A stretch of 64,000 bases of DNA. It comes from Dehalococcoidia bacterium. Lineage in GTDB: Bacteria > Chloroflexota > Dehalococcoidia > Lucifugimonadales > UBA3495. Positions 30,852-37,940 of the stretch are shown here, piece by piece. The stretch's first letter is position 1. Each line of letters begins with the position of its first letter. Position numbers and translations under genes: made by a program. The DNA lies in assembly GCA_963664625.1 (NCBI GenBank), contig OY761541.1:2736174-2800173 (forward strand). Direction: 5' to 3'. Under the pieces are notes generated by a model. The model made no database searches, was not told the origin of the DNA, and worked only from the letters and a program-made list of their open reading frames with translations.

Positions 30852-30959
30852 AGTGATTTGGGTGATTGGTGTGATTTGGTGGTTAAGGTTGGCAATGCTG
30901 TTTTAGAATGGTGGAACGCAAGAGTTATGTGGCAGGGTAGTAATGGAGGTCTAAATCGG

Positions 30960-33900
30960 ATGACGACTACTTTACGGCCCAACAGGGATGCCCTTTCCAG
31001 AGCAATTGACATCTACCGGGATGCGATGCGTCCGTTCATATTGCGGTCTCTCAAGAGAATGCCTGGCGTCTCGGTGGAGACCGCGATAAGGCAGTCGTTG
31101 CCTGACAGGCAGGCGGACAATTTCCGTGCGGCGCTGGGGTCGGGTGAAGACCTGGAATCAGCACTGGACGTCAACATCTTTCCGCCGCTGGTCAGCAACT
31201 TCAGGAATTGGCGTGAAGTGTTCTCCACCGAGTTTGGCGGGGACCAGACGGTCCAGAACGAACTGTGGATGATCAAGGACGCGAGGAACGAAGTTTCGCA
31301 CCCAGGCACGCAGGACCTGGAAGGTGAGTACACCAGGACGCATCTTTACCTCATCGCCGACGTACTGGGTCGAATTAACGCGCCGCAACTGAAGCAGGCC
31401 GTGGAAGACATCCGGGACCAGCTAATCACACCCGCGCCCGCTGCGGAGCCGGTCCAAGCAGTCCAAGAGACCGGGCCGTCTCCTCAAGAGCAGAACGCTC
31501 AGCCCAGAACGCGGCAACAGTCCCGTTCAACCGGCAGTTTGAAGCCTTGGCGGGAGGTTATCCGGCCCAACCAGGACGTTGCCCAAGGCAGCTATCAACA
31601 GGCCGAGTTCGCAGCGGATTTACAGCAAGTGTACGACGGCCGGGCCGACACCACCCAGTACGGGAACCCGGTAAGTTTCTTCGACCACACCTACATCACG
31701 CCGGGCATCAGGGCGTTGCTGGTCAATACCCTCAAACGCTTGAACGGTACGGGGGGAGACCCCGTCATACAAACCAAGACAGGGTTCGGCGGCGGCAAGA
31801 CCCACAGCCTCATCGCCCTGTACCACTTGGTGCGCAACGCCGGCGCGCTGATAAGCCGCCAAGCCGGCGACGGGTCGCGGACCAGCGATGAAATACGCTC
31901 CATCATGGAGGAAGCCGGATACGACCAGAACCCCGATGGCTTGGGAGAGGTAGCGGTGTTGGACGGCGCTTACCTGTCTCCTACAGACGCCACACCGACG
32001 TTAAGCGGGGACCCGTTGAACACCTTATGGGGCGTCATGGCGTATCAACTGGGCGGCCTGCAAGGCTACGACATCGTCGGGGAGGCCGCCCGGCAAGGCA
32101 CGGCGCCCGGGGGCGCCCAGCTTGACGCTCTCTTCGAACACGTAGGGCCGTGCGTCATCCTTATGGATGAGCCGGTGGCCTACGTTCGCAACGCGGGCGC
32201 CGCCCAAGACAGCATTTATACCTTCATCCAAGCCCTCACCCAGTCAGTGCGCCGAAGCAAGGATGTTGCCTTGGTGATTACCCTGCCCCAGAGTCGTGTG
32301 GAGGCAGGAGGCGAAGGGGGCGCAGAGGCCATGGACCGTATCGAGAGCATATTGGGCCGCATAGAGGCGGTGTGGGAGCCGCTGGCAATCAACGAGACGT
32401 TCGAGGTGGTGCGCCGCAGGTTGTTCGGGCCGGTAACCGACCCGGATGCCAGGAACCGCACTTGCGAAGCCTTCTCCAACATGTACTCCAGGAGCCGGCG
32501 GGACTATCCACAAGGCGTTGCCGAGCAGAACTACCAAGAGCGGATAAGGGCTTGCTATCCAATCCACCCGGAGATTTTCGACCGGCTGTATTCCGACTGG
32601 TCCTCCATCCCGGAATTCCAGCGCACCCGCGGCGTCCTGCGGATGATGGCCAAGTGCGTCAACCGCTTGTACTTGAGCAACGATCCCAACCCGCTGATAA
32701 TGCCCGCCGACCTCCCTTTGAGCGACGAAACCCTGGCCAACGAGTTCATCAGGCTGTTGCCGGGCGAGTGGCGCCCCGTCATAACCGAAGTGGACAGCGA
32801 CAACTCCAGGACCGACAACATCGATCAAGAGTCGCAACGCTTCGCTGACGTGGGTGGTGCGGCCCGGCGCATTGCGCGAACGGTGTTCCTGGGCAGCGCG
32901 GGCAGCGGAGCCATCAGGGGTGTAGACTCGCGGCAGATCCACTTGGGCACGGTGCAACCGGGGCAGGGCGTCACGGCGTATACCGAAGCGCTTAGCCGTA
33001 TGACCGGCAACCTTTACTATCTGTACAACAATGGCGACCGCTACTTTTTCTACTCCGAAGAGAACCTGAACAAGGTGGCCAACGACCGGGCCGACGCCCT
33101 GGATAACAGAACGATAGACGCTTACATCATCGACAAGCTGGAAGAGGCCAGCTACCGGCAATCTGACGTGGTCATTTACGCCCATGACACCGGTGAGATA
33201 CGGGACGACGCCTTCGTGCGGCTCGTGGTATTGCCGCCTGCCCTGTCCTTGCCCAGCCGCTCTTCCGAGAACGATGATGCGTCGCCGGAGGCGCTCAAGA
33301 TACTCAATCAGCGGGGCGACGCCCCCCGTGTCCGCCGCAACACGCTTCTATTCCTGGCCGCCCGGCGGGACGAAGTACGCAACCTGAGGAACGCCGTCAG
33401 GAGGTACTTGGCTTGGCACTCCATAGTCAACGGCGAGACCAGGATCCAGAACCTCACTGGTGACCGCTTGGGCCAAGCCAGGTCCGCCGTCAACAACGCC
33501 GACAGGGAGGTCAGGAACGAGTTGGTGCGGGCCTACCGCTGGGCGCTGGCGCCGTTCCAGAGGGACCCGCAAAGGGCGGAGTACGAACTGAACCAGTCCC
33601 AGACAAGCGCCCCGGACTTTGGGGAAATTTTCAAGAGCGCCTTCGACAAATTTGTACAGGACGAGGCCCTGGTGAACCTCATTTCCACCACGTCTTTGAC
33701 CAGCATGTTGCAACAGTACATCTGGAACAGGGAGGACAGCAGCGACCATCTCAGCGTGGATGCTTTGTGGGACCTGATGACCAGCAACGTTTACATGCAC
33801 CGACTGAAGGACAGAACGGTCCTGGAAAGCTGCATCGAAGATGGAGTAGAAGGGGGCGCGTTCGGCTACGCCGCCGGTTATGACGGGGAGCGGTACGAAG

Positions 33901-34337
33901 GGTTGCGGTACAGTGAACCGTTAGCCGATTCCAGCGGTTTTGCTGGTGAGCGTAACCGTCGGCCAGGGTTCCTCGTGCGTCCTGACGCGGCGGCCCGTCA
34001 AAAGGAAGCAGACGCGATTCCGACGCCGCCAGAAATTCTTGACCGCCCTGATGTCCCCAGGCCCGATACTCCACCGCCCCCGGACCTACCGCCCCCGCCC
34101 GGCCCCCGGCTTTCCCGCCGCATCGTGGCCCGCAAAACCACCGGGGCCAATATATCGTTGGACGACGTCAACGTGCTGCGCGAGGAAATCATCCGCAACC
34201 TGACCAACGACGGCGGCGAGGTTACAGTGGAGATCATCGTTTCCGCCACCAAGGCTGAGGGGTTTTCCGAGAGCATCGCCCGGTCTGTACGGGAGAACAG
34301 CACCCAGCTTGGCCTGGAGTTCAGTGAGGGCGAATAG
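30960..34337 (+). CDS. DUF499 family AAA+ ATPase with N-terminal Swt1-like HEPN domain
   Basis: ARNEVSH (RX4H), LKPWREV, EFAADL, FGGGKTHS, LMDE, YPIHPE, FQRTRGVLR. Confidence 0.92.
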   Translation: MTTTLRPNRDALSRAIDIYRDAMRPFILRSLKRMPGVSVETAIRQSLPDRQADNFRAALGSGEDLESALDVNIFPPLVSNFRNWREVFSTEFGGDQTVQNELWMIKDARNEVSHPGTQDLEGEYTRTHLYLIADVLGRINAPQLKQAVEDIRDQLITPAPAAEPVQAVQETGPSPQEQNAQPRTRQQSRSTGSLKPWREVIRPNQDVAQGSYQQAEFAADLQQVYDGRADTTQYGNPVSFFDHTYITPGIRALLVNTLKRLNGTGGDPVIQTKTGFGGGKTHSLIALYHLVRNAGALISRQAGDGSRTSDEIRSIMEEAGYDQNPDGLGEVAVLDGAYLSPTDATPTLSGDPLNTLWGVMAYQLGGLQGYDIVGEAARQGTAPGGAQLDALFEHVGPCVILMDEPVAYVRNAGAAQDSIYTFIQALTQSVRRSKDVALVITLPQSRVEAGGEGGAEAMDRIESILGRIEAVWEPLAINETFEVVRRRLFGPVTDPDARNRTCEAFSNMYSRSRRDYPQGVAEQNYQERIRACYPIHPEIFDRLYSDWSSIPEFQRTRGVLRMMAKCVNRLYLSNDPNPLIMPADLPLSDETLANEFIRLLPGEWRPVITEVDSDNSRTDNIDQESQRFADVGGAARRIARTVFLGSAGSGAIRGVDSRQIHLGTVQPGQGVTAYTEALSRMTGNLYYLYNNGDRYFFYSEENLNKVANDRADALDNRTIDAYIIDKLEEASYRQSDVVIYAHDTGEIRDDAFVRLVVLPPALSLPSRSSENDDASPEALKILNQRGDAPRVRRNTLLFLAARRDEVRNLRNAVRRYLAWHSIVNGETRIQNLTGDRLGQARSAVNNADREVRNELVRAYRWALAPFQRDPQRAEYELNQSQTSAPDFGEIFKSAFDKFVQDEALVNLISTTSLTSMLQQYIWNREDSSDHLSVDALWDLMTSNVYMHRLKDRTVLESCIEDGVEGGAFGYAAGYDGERYEGLRYSEPLADSSGFAGERNRRPGFLVRPDAAARQKEADAIPTPPEILDRPDVPRPDTPPPPDLPPPPGPRLSRRIVARKTTGANISLDDVNVLREEIIRNLTNDGGEVTVEIIVSATKAEGFSESIARSVRENSTQLGLEFSEGE

Positions 34338-34356
34338 TACGAATGATTCAGGGGGC

Positions 34357-34414
34357 AAAAAGAAACGCCCCCTTGCGGGAGCGTCGGCCCAGCAGCATCA
34401 CCCGCTGGGGGGGT
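34357..34414 (-). ncRNA. Candidate ~58-nt sRNA divergent from the NYN gene
   Basis: Own promoter (34421-34449), CCCAGC/GCUGGG stem, ACGCUCCC-GCAA-GGGGGCGU terminator hairpin plus UUCUUUUU. Confidence 0.6.
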
Positions 34415-34420
34415 AACGTC

Positions 34421-34449
34421 AGATTACACTAATAAGGATAGTATGTCAA
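34421..34449 (-). promoter_or_regulatory. Sigma70-type promoter overlapping the NYN start codon, antisense direction
   Basis: TTGACA-17 nt-TAATCT. Confidence 0.65.
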
Positions 34450-35105
34450 CACCCAGCAGCATAGCGTTTGAAGGCAAATCACCGGCCCAGCGCGTGGCAG
34501 TGTACGTTGACGGCCTTAACCTGTACTATGGCCTGAAATCCCGGCGCTGGCGTCGCTACTACTGGCTGGACCTGAGGCGGTTGGCGGAGCGCCTGTTGAG
34601 ACCGGGCCAGCAACTGGCAATAGTCAGGTACTTCACTGCCCGGTTTGAGCCGCAAGCCGACGACCCCGACCAACATGTCCGGCAGGATACATACTTGCGT
34701 GCATTGGAAACCCTGCCCGACCTGACCATCCAGTACGGCCAGCATTTGCCAAAGAATGTAACCTGCCAGTGTTGTGGAACGACCTGGAAAACTTTTGAAG
34801 AGAAAATGACCGACGTCAATATCGCCGTGGCCCTTCTCCGCGACGCGACGCAGGACGTTTTTGACACGGCCATCGTCATTTCTGCAGACAGCGACCTGAC
34901 CGGCCCGTTAGACGCCGTGCTACAAGGCTATATTGGAAAACGGGTAGTGTTCGCTTTCCCACCGAACCGCAACTCCGAACGCTTGCGCCGCCACGCCACC
35001 GCCGCCTTTACTCTGGGCCGCAAGCTCATCAGTGACAACCAGTTTCCCCCGCAGGTAGTCAATCCCGACGGCTACGTCATCAACAAGCCTTCGTACTGGA
35101 ATTGA
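34443..35105 (+). CDS. NYN domain (PIN-like/LabA-DUF88) ribonuclease
   Basis: YVDGLNLY, EEKMTDVNIA, ISADSDL; small CQCC zinc-ribbon-like insert. Confidence 0.92.
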   Translation: MSTPSSIAFEGKSPAQRVAVYVDGLNLYYGLKSRRWRRYYWLDLRRLAERLLRPGQQLAIVRYFTARFEPQADDPDQHVRQDTYLRALETLPDLTIQYGQHLPKNVTCQCCGTTWKTFEEKMTDVNIAVALLRDATQDVFDTAIVISADSDLTGPLDAVLQGYIGKRVVFAFPPNRNSERLRRHATAAFTLGRKLISDNQFPPQVVNPDGYVINKPSYWN

Positions 35106-35117
35106 GGTGCCAACGCC

Positions 35118-37940
35118 ATGACCACCCAACCCATCTACCGCAGGAAACTCATCGAGGTTGACCTGCCCCTGGACGAGATCAACAAGCAGTCCAAACGTGA
35201 GAGGGCCATTAGACATGGGCATCCATCAACCTTGCATCAATGGTGGGCAAGACTCTCCCTAGCTGCCTGCCGCGCTGTCATTTTCGCTAGTATGGTGGAC
35301 GACCCGTCGTCCTGCGAGGAAGAGTTTCCTACGGCGGAATCCCAAGATACCGAGCGTAACCGGCTCCACAACATCATTAGACATCTGGTAAATTGGGAAA
35401 CCACCGACGAAACTAACCCACAGAACATCGGACTTTTAGCCGAGGCCAGATGGGAAATCGCCCGTTCCGTGGCCCGCTCCAGGGGCGAAGCGCCACCGGA
35501 CAAAGCCAACCCGGATGAAGTGTTGCGTTACCTCGGCGACAAGGCACTGCCCATCTACGATCCCTTCTGCGGCGGCGGTTCCATTCCCTTGGAGGCACAG
35601 CGGCTGGGGTTGCAAGCCGTGGGTAGCGATCTCAACCCGGTGGCGGTGTTGATTACCAAGACCCTGATCGAGTTGCCGCCCAAGTTCGCTAACAAGCCCC
35701 CGGTGAACCCCGACGCTGACCCTATGGGTATGACCGTCGGCAAAGGCAAGAAGGCTCAAAAAGTGGCTTGGCGGGGAGCGGCGGGCTTGGCTGATGACAT
35801 TCGCTACTACGGGCGGAAGATGCGGGAAATGGCTTGGGAGCGCATCGGCCACCTTTACCCCAAAGCCAAGCTGCCAGACGGCGGCGAGGCTACTGTCATT
35901 GCTTGGTTGTGGGCCAGGACCGTCCCTTGCCCCAATCCTGCCTGCCGTGTGGAGATGCCGCTTACGAAGACCTTTCAGCTATCTACCAAGCAGGGCAACC
36001 AGCATTGGACCAGGCCCGTCGTTGACCGGGACACCAAGCTCATTTCCTTTGTAGTGCAGAACCACCGTGGAGATGTTCCGAAAGAAAGTACAGTGGACCG
36101 AAACGGGGCTACCTGCATTGCCTGCAACGGTACTGTCCCTTTGTCTTATGTCCGGGAACAGTCCCGGGCGGGCCACTTGGGTGAGCAAATGACGGCCATC
36201 GTCGCAGAGGGAGACCGAAAGCGACTGTTTTTGTCGCCCACTGATGAGCATATCAAAGCTGCTATGTTGGCAAAGTCAGAATGGCGGCCGGGCGGTAGCT
36301 TTCCGAATCGGACAAGAGATTTTACTCCTTCAGGCTATGGGATTACTTACTGGCATCAACTTTTCAAGGAAAGGCAGTTAGTCGCGTTGACTACCTTGAG
36401 CGAGCTAGTTGCAGAAGTAGGCGACCTTTTTGTGAACGAAGGGGTTGACAAAGGGTATTCCAACGCAATTTGTACTTATCTTGCCTTGGCAGTCGACAGA
36501 AAATCGAACGCTGGTTCTAAATTTTCCACATGGCAAAACGCTGGAGACTTTGTCTCCAGCGTTTTCAAACTTCAGGCTCTGCCAATGGTATGGGATTTTG
36601 CTGAAATAAACCCCTTTTCTGGTTCAACTAATAACTGGATGGCGCAAATCGAATGGATTGCTCGAATCACCGAACGTCTGCCAGCCAAAGTAAATAGTGG
36701 GATAGTTCATCAGGCAGACGCTTCAACTACAGTGCATGCCAATGAGGGCCCAGTAATCGTTACTGACCCACCCTACTATGACAATGTGGCCTACGCCGAC
36801 CTCTCCGATTTCTTCTATGTGTGGCTACGCCCGATGCTCCGGGGCATCTACCCTGGATTGTTCGCTGGGATCGCGACTCCCAAGTCTGAAGAGATGATAG
36901 CAGAACCAAGCAGGTTTGAGCATTCAAGGGACAGATTTGAAGCACTGCTGAATCAGACACTACAACTGATAAGGGAGCGATGTGGTACAGAGTTCCCTTC
37001 GTCCATATTCTATGCCTATAAGCAGCAGGAGGAAGAACGGGAGGGACGGACATCCACTGGCTGGGAAACGATGCTATCTGCGGTTGTTTCAGCAGGATTT
37101 CAGATAGTCGGTACTTGGCCGATGCGCACAGCAGGTGGACGGGTTCGTGCTGTGGATTCTAACGCCCTCGCATCCTCTGTTGTCATAGTCTGCCGCCCGC
37201 GACTTGAGGATGCGCCAAATGCGACACGCCGCCAATTCCTGGATGCACTGGAAGCCGAGTTACCCCAGGCCCTCGACCAACTTACCCAAGAGAGCCACAT
37301 TGCCCCGGTGGACTTGGCCCAGGCCGCCATTGGGCCGGGGATGCAGGTCTATTCCCGTTATAGCCGGGTTGAGACCATCGGAGGCGAACTGGTGCCGGTG
37401 CGGGAGGCACTGGTTAACATCAACCGGGTTATCGCCGAGTATGACGAGCTGCAGCAGGGCGACCTGGATGCGCCGACCCGCTTCTGCCTCGATTGGTTCA
37501 AGCAAAACGACTACAACGAGGGAAGGTTTGGCGAGGCGGAGGACCTGGCCCGGGCCAAGAACGTGTCGGTGGAGGAACTGCGGGACGGCAGCGGCCTGCT
37601 GACCGCCGGCGCCGGGGTGGTGAAATTGCTGCCCTTGGACCAATACGGCCCAGAGCGGAGTCTCCGGTTGGGCGATATGACGGCATGGGAAGGGTGCTTC
37701 CGCATGACCTACCATCTGGACACCAACCGGGAGGACGGGGGAGGCGTCGAGGGTGCGGCGACGGTTGCGCGGGCGATGGGCAGCAACGCCGAGAGCGTGG
37801 AGCGGCTGGCCCGGATCCTGTACAACCATTATGACCGGAAAGGAGACTCCCGCAACTCGGTGATGTTCAACAACCTGGTGACCGAGTGGCCGAACATCCA
37901 AGCCAGGGCGCAAGGGCCGGAGGAGCCCACGCTGCTGTAA
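35118..37940 (+). CDS. DUF1156 family DNA adenine methyltransferase
   Basis: KLIEVDLPL, LHQWWAR, DPFCGGGSIP, TDPPYYDN. Confidence 0.93.
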   Translation: MTTQPIYRRKLIEVDLPLDEINKQSKRERAIRHGHPSTLHQWWARLSLAACRAVIFASMVDDPSSCEEEFPTAESQDTERNRLHNIIRHLVNWETTDETNPQNIGLLAEARWEIARSVARSRGEAPPDKANPDEVLRYLGDKALPIYDPFCGGGSIPLEAQRLGLQAVGSDLNPVAVLITKTLIELPPKFANKPPVNPDADPMGMTVGKGKKAQKVAWRGAAGLADDIRYYGRKMREMAWERIGHLYPKAKLPDGGEATVIAWLWARTVPCPNPACRVEMPLTKTFQLSTKQGNQHWTRPVVDRDTKLISFVVQNHRGDVPKESTVDRNGATCIACNGTVPLSYVREQSRAGHLGEQMTAIVAEGDRKRLFLSPTDEHIKAAMLAKSEWRPGGSFPNRTRDFTPSGYGITYWHQLFKERQLVALTTLSELVAEVGDLFVNEGVDKGYSNAICTYLALAVDRKSNAGSKFSTWQNAGDFVSSVFKLQALPMVWDFAEINPFSGSTNNWMAQIEWIARITERLPAKVNSGIVHQADASTTVHANEGPVIVTDPPYYDNVAYADLSDFFYVWLRPMLRGIYPGLFAGIATPKSEEMIAEPSRFEHSRDRFEALLNQTLQLIRERCGTEFPSSIFYAYKQQEEEREGRTSTGWETMLSAVVSAGFQIVGTWPMRTAGGRVRAVDSNALASSVVIVCRPRLEDAPNATRRQFLDALEAELPQALDQLTQESHIAPVDLAQAAIGPGMQVYSRYSRVETIGGELVPVREALVNINRVIAEYDELQQGDLDAPTRFCLDWFKQNDYNEGRFGEAEDLARAKNVSVEELRDGSGLLTAGAGVVKLLPLDQYGPERSLRLGDMTAWEGCFRMTYHLDTNREDGGGVEGAATVARAMGSNAESVERLARILYNHYDRKGDSRNSVMFNNLVTEWPNIQARAQGPEEPTLL

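Follow-up and report, generated by a model that had tools for sequence, protein, structure and literature searches.

The stretch of DNA analysed here, 64,000 nucleotides (nt) from the genome of a Dehalococcoidia bacterium (hereafter the window), contains a gene for a NYN-domain protein, predicted to be a metal-dependent RNase, and just upstream, on the opposite strand, the gene for a small RNA (sRNA) of ~58 nt. We find that this sRNA belongs to a structured RNA family, encoded on a defined strand with its own promoter and terminator, that is obligately linked to NYN genes in layouts independent of orientation, and that phages carry copies of the RNA without the NYN gene. The protein has been catalogued as HEC-09 (Hma-embedded candidate 09; Payne et al. 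2024, 10.1101/2024.01.29.577857, available to us in part) and has been treated as a single-protein candidate. At slightly less than an even chance in our estimate, the pair represents an unrecognised, phylum-spanning class of protein-RNA toxin-antitoxin or abortive-infection system, in which a PIN-like (NYN, HEC-09) RNase would be checked by a single-unit sRNA of ~60 nt with a promoter of its own, and phages would carry RNA-only decoys.

The sRNA gene lies in an intergenic gap of 105 nt between the stop of a 1159-amino-acid gene (30858-34337) and the start of the 220-amino-acid NYN gene (34443-35105, plus strand), and 20 nt separate the stop codon of the upstream gene, hmaC, from the sRNA 3' end. 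It occupies 34357..34414 on the minus strand, its ends (5' end at ~34414, end of the U-tail at ~34357) being predicted from the promoter and the terminator, and its sequence, starting ~7 nt after the -10 box, reads ACCCCCCCAGCGGGUGAUGCUGCUGGGCCGACGCUCCCGCAAGGGGGCGUUUCUUUUU. A minus-strand promoter TTGACA-17-TAATCT overlapping the NYN start codon had been proposed for it, and the sequence is as claimed: the -35 box TTGACA (34449->34444) shares 2 nt with the NYN ATG (34443-34445), and a 17-nt spacer leads to the -10 box TAATCT (34426->34421). This promoter scores 9/12 in our own -35/-10 scan; a simple promoter scanner omitted the site because TAATCT agrees with TATAAT at 3/6 positions.

The RNA begins with a single-stranded C-rich 5' tail (34410..34414, minus strand; ACCCC in the RNA), whose C columns are near-invariant in the alignment described below and which is kept in the variant RNAs of sister clades. 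It continues with hairpin 1 (34388..34409, minus strand), which has 8 pairs and the loop GUGAUG in the window, and, after a conserved linker CCGAC, with a terminator hairpin of 9 pairs (34364..34385, minus strand) and a U-rich tail (34357..34363, minus strand) recognised by both the terminator scan and the alignment. The scan places the minus-strand site at 34385..34364, with 9 pairs, the loop GCAA and the tail TCTTTTTGCC; terminator-like sites number 4 in 33800-35600, compared with 2.0 +/- 1.4 in shuffles. The 58-nt RNA folds into the two hairpins at -31.5 kcal/mol (z = -2.98; 1/200 shuffles as good), and a transcript of the region from the plus strand shows nothing unusual in its fold (z -1.46). 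There is one G-U wobble in hairpin 1 and two in the terminator, where the plus strand would give A.C mismatches, so that scan and fold together confirm the original prediction of a ~58-nt RNA with a GCAA-capped terminator and strand-specific wobble pairing. A covariance model of the family (R1) matches 34356-34418 with 58.7 bits (E 2.6e-14), and the stretch is a single copy in the 3.76-Mb genome, where R1 matches once, beside NYN.

A structured RNA family linked to NYN genes

When the gap was compared with the loci of NYN homologues by short-word BLAST, the two-hairpin stretch turned up again upstream of NYN genes from distant phyla, and a profile search returned 98 matches at E<1, with 73 unique matches at E<1e-5. 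We aligned 71 of these 73 (alignment A2), omitting two copies from locus L059 that have long loop inserts. RNAalifold recovers the same two hairpins from A2, with compensatory, two-sided changes at 13/17 pairs (7/8 in hairpin 1 and 6/9 in the terminator hairpin). With the structure held fixed, 95.4% of 1207 cells pair, compared with 84.4 +/- 0.5% in shuffles, and the covariation score is 0.412, compared with 0.207; none of 500 shuffles equals the alignment in any of five measures, and sliding the pair partners by 1-3 columns lowers pairing to 41-51%. The wobble count, 101 G-U/U-G cells against 6 A-C/C-A cells, assigns the structure to the strand opposite NYN. The near-invariant unpaired parts are the 5' tail ACC(C/A)C, the apex of hairpin 1, GA(U/G)(A/C)G(C/U)AUC, and the linker CCGAC.

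Several other readings of the gap and of these motifs were considered and rejected. Just two mechanical open reading frames (35 and 29 amino acids) overlap the gap and could stand for a small protein antitoxin; the coding reading was rejected because homologous regions show loop indels and RNA-type covariation. We also dropped the idea that the hairpin apex serves NYN, on the opposite strand, as a -10 box, since convergent, same-strand, and phage copies conserve the apex to the same degree. Nor, judged by eye, does the 5' C-tail seem to pair with the terminator G-run, the terminator varying (GGAGG, GCGGG, GGUGG) and the tail showing no matching change.

The promoter is conserved together with the stems. 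In the 50 nt upstream of each of 92 RNA copies, we searched for the best -35/-10 pair located where a promoter would be expected, and found a sigma-70-like pair scoring at least 9/12 for 55/92 copies, against 1.9% of shuffled upstream regions, and one scoring at least 10/12 for 45/92, against 0.3%; a perfect TTGACA stands at the expected place in 47/92. The low scorers include second copies that lie right behind the terminator of a first copy (loci L052, L057, L068, L070, and L078). Judged from these sequences, the transcription unit of promoter, RNA, and terminator is conserved, and the RNA is probably transcribed. The comparison of regions upstream of NYN homologues thus bore out the conservation of promoter and stems, with covariation, that the original prediction called for. 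Two tandem RNA genes only 7 nt apart occur at locus L043 (6669-6814), where the second copy has its -35 TTGACA within the loop of the first copy's terminator and its -10 within the U-tail of that first copy.

Searches of Rfam 15 with the window region gave only three chance-level matches (E 5.4-9.2), those with 14 loci gave no match at E<=0.1, and those with six further loci gave only two tRNA matches, away from the RNA; no Rfam 15 family matches the sRNA.

Seen from the protein side, the linkage is complete. We took the 80 best NYN loci, with 39-71% identity to the window NYN and from Chloroflexota, Pseudomonadota, Planctomycetota, Actinomycetota, Bacteroidota, and other phyla, and found the RNA at all 80 (61 by nhmmer and 19 by R1 at E <= 1.3e-6, the RNA being just upstream and divergent in all of these 19), so that NYN without the RNA occurs at 0/80 loci and the sRNA stands as a specific partner of the NYN gene. 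The RNA lies within ~300 nt of NYN at 77/80 loci and at 1.4-2.5 kb at the remaining three (L054, L056, and L060). Its layout is upstream and divergent at 72 loci, downstream and convergent at 5, and upstream on the same strand at 3, and at the divergent loci NYN codon 20 is in most cases 69-105 nt away from the 5' end of the sRNA. At 12/80 loci, 2-4 RNA copies stand beside one NYN gene, most of them with their own promoter and all with their own terminator. HmaB/HmaC-like neighbours, as in the window, are found at only 19/80 loci, and the NYN-RNA pair is therefore a portable module, found within Hma only in some cases.

More distant relatives retain a variant of the RNA. NYN genes at 33-46% identity are accompanied by an RNA with a (U)ACCCC 5' tail, one hairpin, a CGAGAC-like linker, and a terminator, located directly upstream of NYN and on the same strand. 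R1 scores these variants at 30.5 bits (L010), 24.3 bits (L022), and 19.4 bits (L024), and at L010 the NYN ATG follows 6 nt after the U-tail of the RNA. The order promoter-RNA-terminator-NYN on one strand is found at 3/80 genome loci, at 12/80 metagenome loci, and at the sister loci L010, L022, L024, and L274; at the 12 metagenome loci a near-consensus promoter is followed, in this order, by the RNA, a weakened U-tail, a ribosome-binding site, and the ATG. Among plasmids from cultured bacteria, R1 detects a divergent copy in Microbacterium (42.5 bits) and a same-strand copy in Streptomyces (37 bits), and no match on a 3461-bp E. coli plasmid or on Paenarthrobacter, Granulicella, and Methylobacterium plasmids. 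A leader of the form ACCC-hairpin-terminator can be made out, by eye only, on the Granulicella, Methylobacterium, and 3461-bp E. coli/Serratia plasmids. On the E. coli plasmid (L267, NZ_CP091696.1, 2395-3170), a NYN gene with 33.6% identity stands behind a structured leader of ~110 nt, which folds with z -5.17, and tiny non-mobilizable E. coli/Serratia plasmids with NYN also carry a gene for a VbhA-family antitoxin.

RNA copies without an intact NYN gene

A search with an IUPAC pattern of the conserved core identified 30 viral contigs and >120 metagenome contigs, and we examined 80 of the metagenome loci: NYN is divergent at 34 and on the same strand at 12, there is no NYN despite at least 800 nt of room at 11, 19 are too near a contig end, and 4 have no profile match. 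All 30 viral contigs have full-length R1 matches (33.9-80.4 bits), with 21 distinct sequences, and none of the 30 has a NYN match in the retrieved DNA. Their RNA copies, many of which have degraded U-tails and no clear promoter, neighbour genes for terminase, baseplate proteins, HNH, ParB-type N6/N4 methylases, DUF3800, and Ro60. Two RNA variants of proteobacterial or phage origin had no BLAST match among cultured phages or E. coli genomes. The family is widespread, being present at all 80 NYN loci and on many metagenome and viral contigs, and its absence from Rfam 15 makes it a new structured RNA class with clear covariation.

Applied to 61 related genomes, R1 finds 18 places in 10 genomes, of which 14 are strong (at least 49 bits): 9 beside NYN and 5 elsewhere (after hicB, near DUF4258, DUF6998, and RadC). 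A relaxed search near orphan RNAs further identified 13 loci with an intact RNA and only pieces of NYN, at least 2 of which are cut by contig ends; the clear internal cases of an intact RNA with a NYN remnant are L115, L114, L212, L181/L221, L225, and the phage phiLo.

The settings of these copies are varied. In genomes of relatives, four loci have RNA copies but no complete NYN gene: at L113 the copy immediately follows hicB; at L115 an N-terminal stub of NYN separates it from a nearby DUF4258 toxin-like gene; at L114 it overlaps a C-terminal stub of NYN; and at L116 two divergent copies adjoin RadC. At five viral or metagenome loci (L121, L126, L140, L146, and L201), it is directly upstream, on the same strand, of genes for ParB-type N6/N4 DNA methylases, and three GTTTGCAGG-like repeats precede it where other copies have the promoter. 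At L214 (2886-2935), where there is no NYN, the RNA, encoded on the opposite strand, sits where an AbiEii-like ATPase gene meets a Snf2-helicase/GIY-YIG gene, and may be a relic inside another defence locus. On an IMG/VR contig (L141, RNA at 804-861), a Ro60/TROVE gene is followed, ~390 nt downstream, by a copy of the conserved hairpin with a T-arm-like GGTTTGAATCC before it; a longer stem encloses this copy, which lacks the usual terminator at its end, and we take the conserved GGNCCGA at this one locus to recall the Ro-binding motif of Y RNAs.

A cultured example of loss of the enzyme is provided by Thermus. Plasmid pTHEOS01 of Thermus oshimai JL-2 has a NYN gene (44.6% identity) with a divergent RNA (62.8 bits), and Thermus phage phiLo (recorded host T. 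thermophilus HB8) has an RNA (63.7 bits) beside a NYN remnant, a 23-residue match to the NYN N-terminus. The two sequences align over ~190 columns with 6 differences and have no similarity outside this stretch, which runs from the sRNA 3' end through the sRNA and its promoter and ends after ~22 NYN codons, so that phiLo has kept the RNA unit and lost the enzyme. The capture of ToxI by phage PhiTE is a precedent for a phage-borne RNA antitoxin (PMC3475682, available to us in part), which the phiLo copy, by analogy, may parallel.

Orphan copies in so many phage and genome contexts, the worn U-tails and promoters of many phage copies, and a phiLo/Thermus plasmid homology that begins exactly at the sRNA 3' end could be taken to mean that the RNA is an independent sRNA belonging to mobile elements, or a module serving as terminator or recombination site, with NYN merely co-travelling and no direct functional coupling between them. 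We consider this very unlikely: the RNA is kept at 80/80 NYN loci across phyla and in unrelated neighbourhoods (only 19/80 with Hma), more distant NYN clades retain a variant of this RNA, the module has no accompanying recombinase, and the wobble pattern and promoter indicate a transcribed RNA rather than a site acting at the DNA level.

How the RNA may act on NYN

Two pairing features had been ascribed to the sRNA in the window, and neither is a property of the family. An H-type pseudoknot, ACCC/GGGU, can be drawn as predicted, but it is outside the minimum-free-energy and centroid structures and is not conserved; we reject it as a family feature because the window loop that it needs, GGGUGAUG, is absent elsewhere, the consensus apex lacking GGGU. 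The second feature is an 11-nt stretch of the NYN gene, CCCAGCAGCAT (34452..34462, plus strand; NYN codons 4-7), that is complementary to sRNA positions 17-27 and is an exact direct repeat of 34388-34398, the copies in the sRNA gene and the NYN codons being 64 nt apart. Complementarity of this length is reached by 0/200 shuffles of the window sequence. Across 44 loci, however, the longest perfect complement to the NYN 5' region, typically 6 nt, has p<0.05 at only 2, and the closest relative, L032, has a longest match of 6 nt and lacks the 11-nt repeat. The match is thus real and unusual in the window but private to this locus.

These results bear on antisense control, in which the sRNA would pair with the NYN mRNA in cis or in trans and block its translation or cause its decay, as in type I systems. 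The arrangement in the window would suit such control, the -35 box of the sRNA overlapping the NYN start codon, the sRNA 5' end being ~28 nt away, the 11-nt match falling in the first NYN codons, and our terminator scan of the window detecting no plus-strand terminator between hmaC and NYN; so would the tight spacing at most divergent loci, owing to which the NYN promoter would have to overlap the sRNA gene, and the convergent copies, which would oppose the NYN 3' untranslated region. SymE/SymR and RalR/RalA, type I systems with divergent sRNAs opposite nuclease toxins, offer a precedent. The same-strand layouts of genome, metagenome, and sister-clade loci, however, are incompatible with cis-antisense pairing and exclude it as a general mode of action, and the RNA-only copies of phages have no NYN mRNA in cis. 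As for pairing in trans, RNAduplex comparison of the sRNA with the NYN 5' region at the 44 loci, a crude test of limited power, gives a mean z of -0.06 with 0/44 below -2; these scores and the longest-complement test, which both stand at chance level, led us to reject it as a family feature, and the NYN 5' region contains no conserved sequence complementary to the unpaired motifs (ACCCC, apex, and CCGAC). We therefore regard antisense control as unlikely, although a local cis-antisense effect, depending on where the transcripts begin and end, may add to the main mechanism in the window.

The RNA could alternatively be a cofactor, scaffold, substrate, or specificity element of NYN, in a ribonucleoprotein effector that involves no inhibition; its C-rich tail might, for example, base-pair to G-rich targets, or the RNA might be a substrate that NYN processes. 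Such a role would accommodate the obligate co-occurrence (80/80), the strong promoter, and the strong conservation of single-stranded motifs, and a missing or badly expressed RNA partner could then explain the failure of HEC-09 in E. coli. The RNA has, against this, no variable guide-like segment, its unpaired parts being conserved; its genes are amplified 2-4 fold without amplification of NYN; and RNA-only copies persist, as 21 distinct phage sequences and beside decayed NYN genes, which is hard to explain if the RNA is useless alone. A cofactor role is, in our estimate, improbable.

Amplification of the RNA without NYN, persistence of the RNA alone, and the lack of NYN-only loci among the 80 make up the asymmetry that would be expected of a harmful protein and a protective RNA. 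This asymmetric loss, with the linkage, the layouts, the lack of an antisense signal in the family, the RNase fold predicted for NYN, and the precedent of ToxI, leads us to favour a trans-acting RNA that neutralises NYN. The NYN RNase and a dedicated sRNA of ~60 nt, divergent and with its own strong promoter and terminator, would form a two-gene module in which the sRNA acts in trans on the NYN protein as its neutralising partner, a type III-like RNA antitoxin. Made in excess, the RNA would keep NYN inactive; a collapse of the RNA supply, through phage shut-off of host transcription or loss of the module, would free NYN to cut cellular or phage RNA; and phages carrying the RNA gene alone would disarm NYN, their RNA-only copies serving as decoys. 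We put at about even odds that the sRNA is such a trans-acting antidote of a NYN toxin and the phage copies its decoys; NYN toxicity, direct binding of RNA to protein, and the trigger are what we infer in addition. An RNA-antitoxin role, proposed in the original prediction, is the inferred explanation that best fits the comparative data.

Several points weigh against a neutralising RNA. The sRNA, with its two GC-rich hairpins, looks very stable, and antitoxins are usually labile. Read-through from hmaC in the window would give an mRNA fully complementary to the sRNA, and the duplex comparison that speaks against antisense pairing is, as noted, of limited power. The RNA-only copies beside unrelated genes (phage methylases, terminase, DUF3800, hicB, DUF4258, RadC, and Ro60) may mean that the RNA has a job without NYN. 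The module also departs from type III systems in being a single unit of ~60 nt with its own terminator rather than a tandem-repeat array processed by the toxin, in the fold of its toxin, which is NYN/PIN-like and not that of ToxN, CptN, TenpN, or AbiQ, and in the divergent orientation of the RNA, with its own promoter, in the window and at 72/80 loci. Finally, in its only published test, HEC-09 gave no defence against the phages tried in E. coli (10.1101/2024.01.29.577857); according to the preprint, the clone of each candidate included its putative native promoter region.

The NYN protein, its locus and known systems

The NYN protein (34443..35105, plus strand; Pfam PF01936, E 5.9e-12, with NYN its only Pfam domain) matches the PADLOC model HEC-09 (PDLC04163) over profile positions 2-203 of 203 (E 1.7e-80, 267.5 bits). 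Its AlphaFold2 model (predicted local distance difference test, pLDDT, 89.6; predicted template modelling score, pTM, 0.84) finds its best Foldseek matches in VPA0982 (2qip, E 5.9e-9) and the MARF1 NYN domains 6fdl/5yaa (probability 1.00 and E 5.9e-9 to 3.6e-4 throughout), and a profile search of PDB sequences returns 2qip at E 4e-4. In an alignment of 59 homologues, D134, D141, D149, D151, and N26 are invariant and D23 and D124 nearly so. Its fold and conserved acidic residues predict that the protein is an endoribonuclease. It has the fold in common with MARF1 and VPA0982 at an identity of only 14-16% and differs from them in an extra, inserted beta-hairpin with a CxxC pair (C108 and C111). 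To our knowledge, the NYN RNases MARF1 and VPA0982 have no partner RNA.

In the window, the NYN gene is nested between core Hma genes: upstream is the hmaC-like gene (30858..34337, plus strand; PADLOC HmaC E 6.5e-241), encoding a DUF499 ATPase with an N-terminal HEPN_Swt1 domain, and downstream is an hmaB-like gene (35118..37940, plus strand; PADLOC HmaB E 5.3e-283), encoding a DUF1156 DNA adenine methylase. No HmaA helicase is found among open reading frames of at least 180 amino acids at 20-50 kb of the window, and the Hma system at 30858-37940 may be incomplete or have its helicase elsewhere. The genes flanking HmaC-NYN-HmaB are housekeeping genes (ligase, aminotransferase, and FAD oxidases), so that of the defence island originally predicted here, these three genes are present and nothing more.

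For HEC-09, the cited preprint reports a NYN fold resembling that of MARF1, with three aspartates conserved, and the terms "non-coding" and "ncRNA" each have 0 occurrences in its main text (10.1101/2024.01.29.577857, available in part). The protein in the window matches HEC-09 over its full length and in its HmaC/HmaB setting, and has an RNA partner in addition. In the literature searched, as far as the sources were available, we found no type III toxin-antitoxin system with a NYN or PIN toxin and no antitoxin pair of NYN and a small RNA, and among the matches listed for RNA-motif discovery none contains "NYN". The original statement that no system of this form had been described accordingly stands for the RNA, which lacks a description in that literature and in Rfam 15, and fails for the protein, already catalogued as HEC-09. 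The RNA family is new, and the pair is a variant of the protein-RNA toxin-antitoxin theme.

If a candidate catalogued as one gene needs, or is restrained by, an RNA partner, the design of its cloning and assays changes. Were the RNA an antitoxin, the range of RNA-antitoxin systems would grow to take in the PIN/NYN fold and a new gene layout, and the phage RNA-only copies would amount to a natural and widespread RNA-based counter-defence, so far known mainly from ToxI mimicry. Thermus phage phiLo and the Thermus oshimai pTHEOS01 module provide a cultured pair for testing, and the 3.4-kb E. coli plasmids, with their related NYN gene and structured leader, are further tractable material; the hosts in both cases are non-pathogenic.

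Among known systems, SymE/SymR and RalR/RalA resemble the pair in having the sRNA promoter at or inside the 5' end of the toxin gene, in the opposite direction, and in having a nuclease toxin rather than a membrane peptide; they differ from it in that the RNA described here has no conserved pairing to the NYN mRNA and occurs in same-strand and convergent layouts as well. From type I toxin-antitoxin systems in general it is set apart by its protein, a soluble enzyme of 220 amino acids instead of a small hydrophobic peptide. Apart from the differences weighed above and the lack of a conserved pseudoknot, the module is like the type III systems (ToxIN, CptIN, TenpIN, and AbiQ/AntiQ) in several respects: the gene for a predicted RNase is paired with a gene for a small structured RNA; the promoter-RNA-terminator-toxin layout, with one promoter and a leaky terminator, is that of the sister clades and same-strand metagenome loci; some loci have several RNA copies; the module is found on plasmids and in defence loci; and phages carry RNA-only copies, comparable to pseudo-ToxI and the capture of ToxI by PhiTE (PMC3475682).

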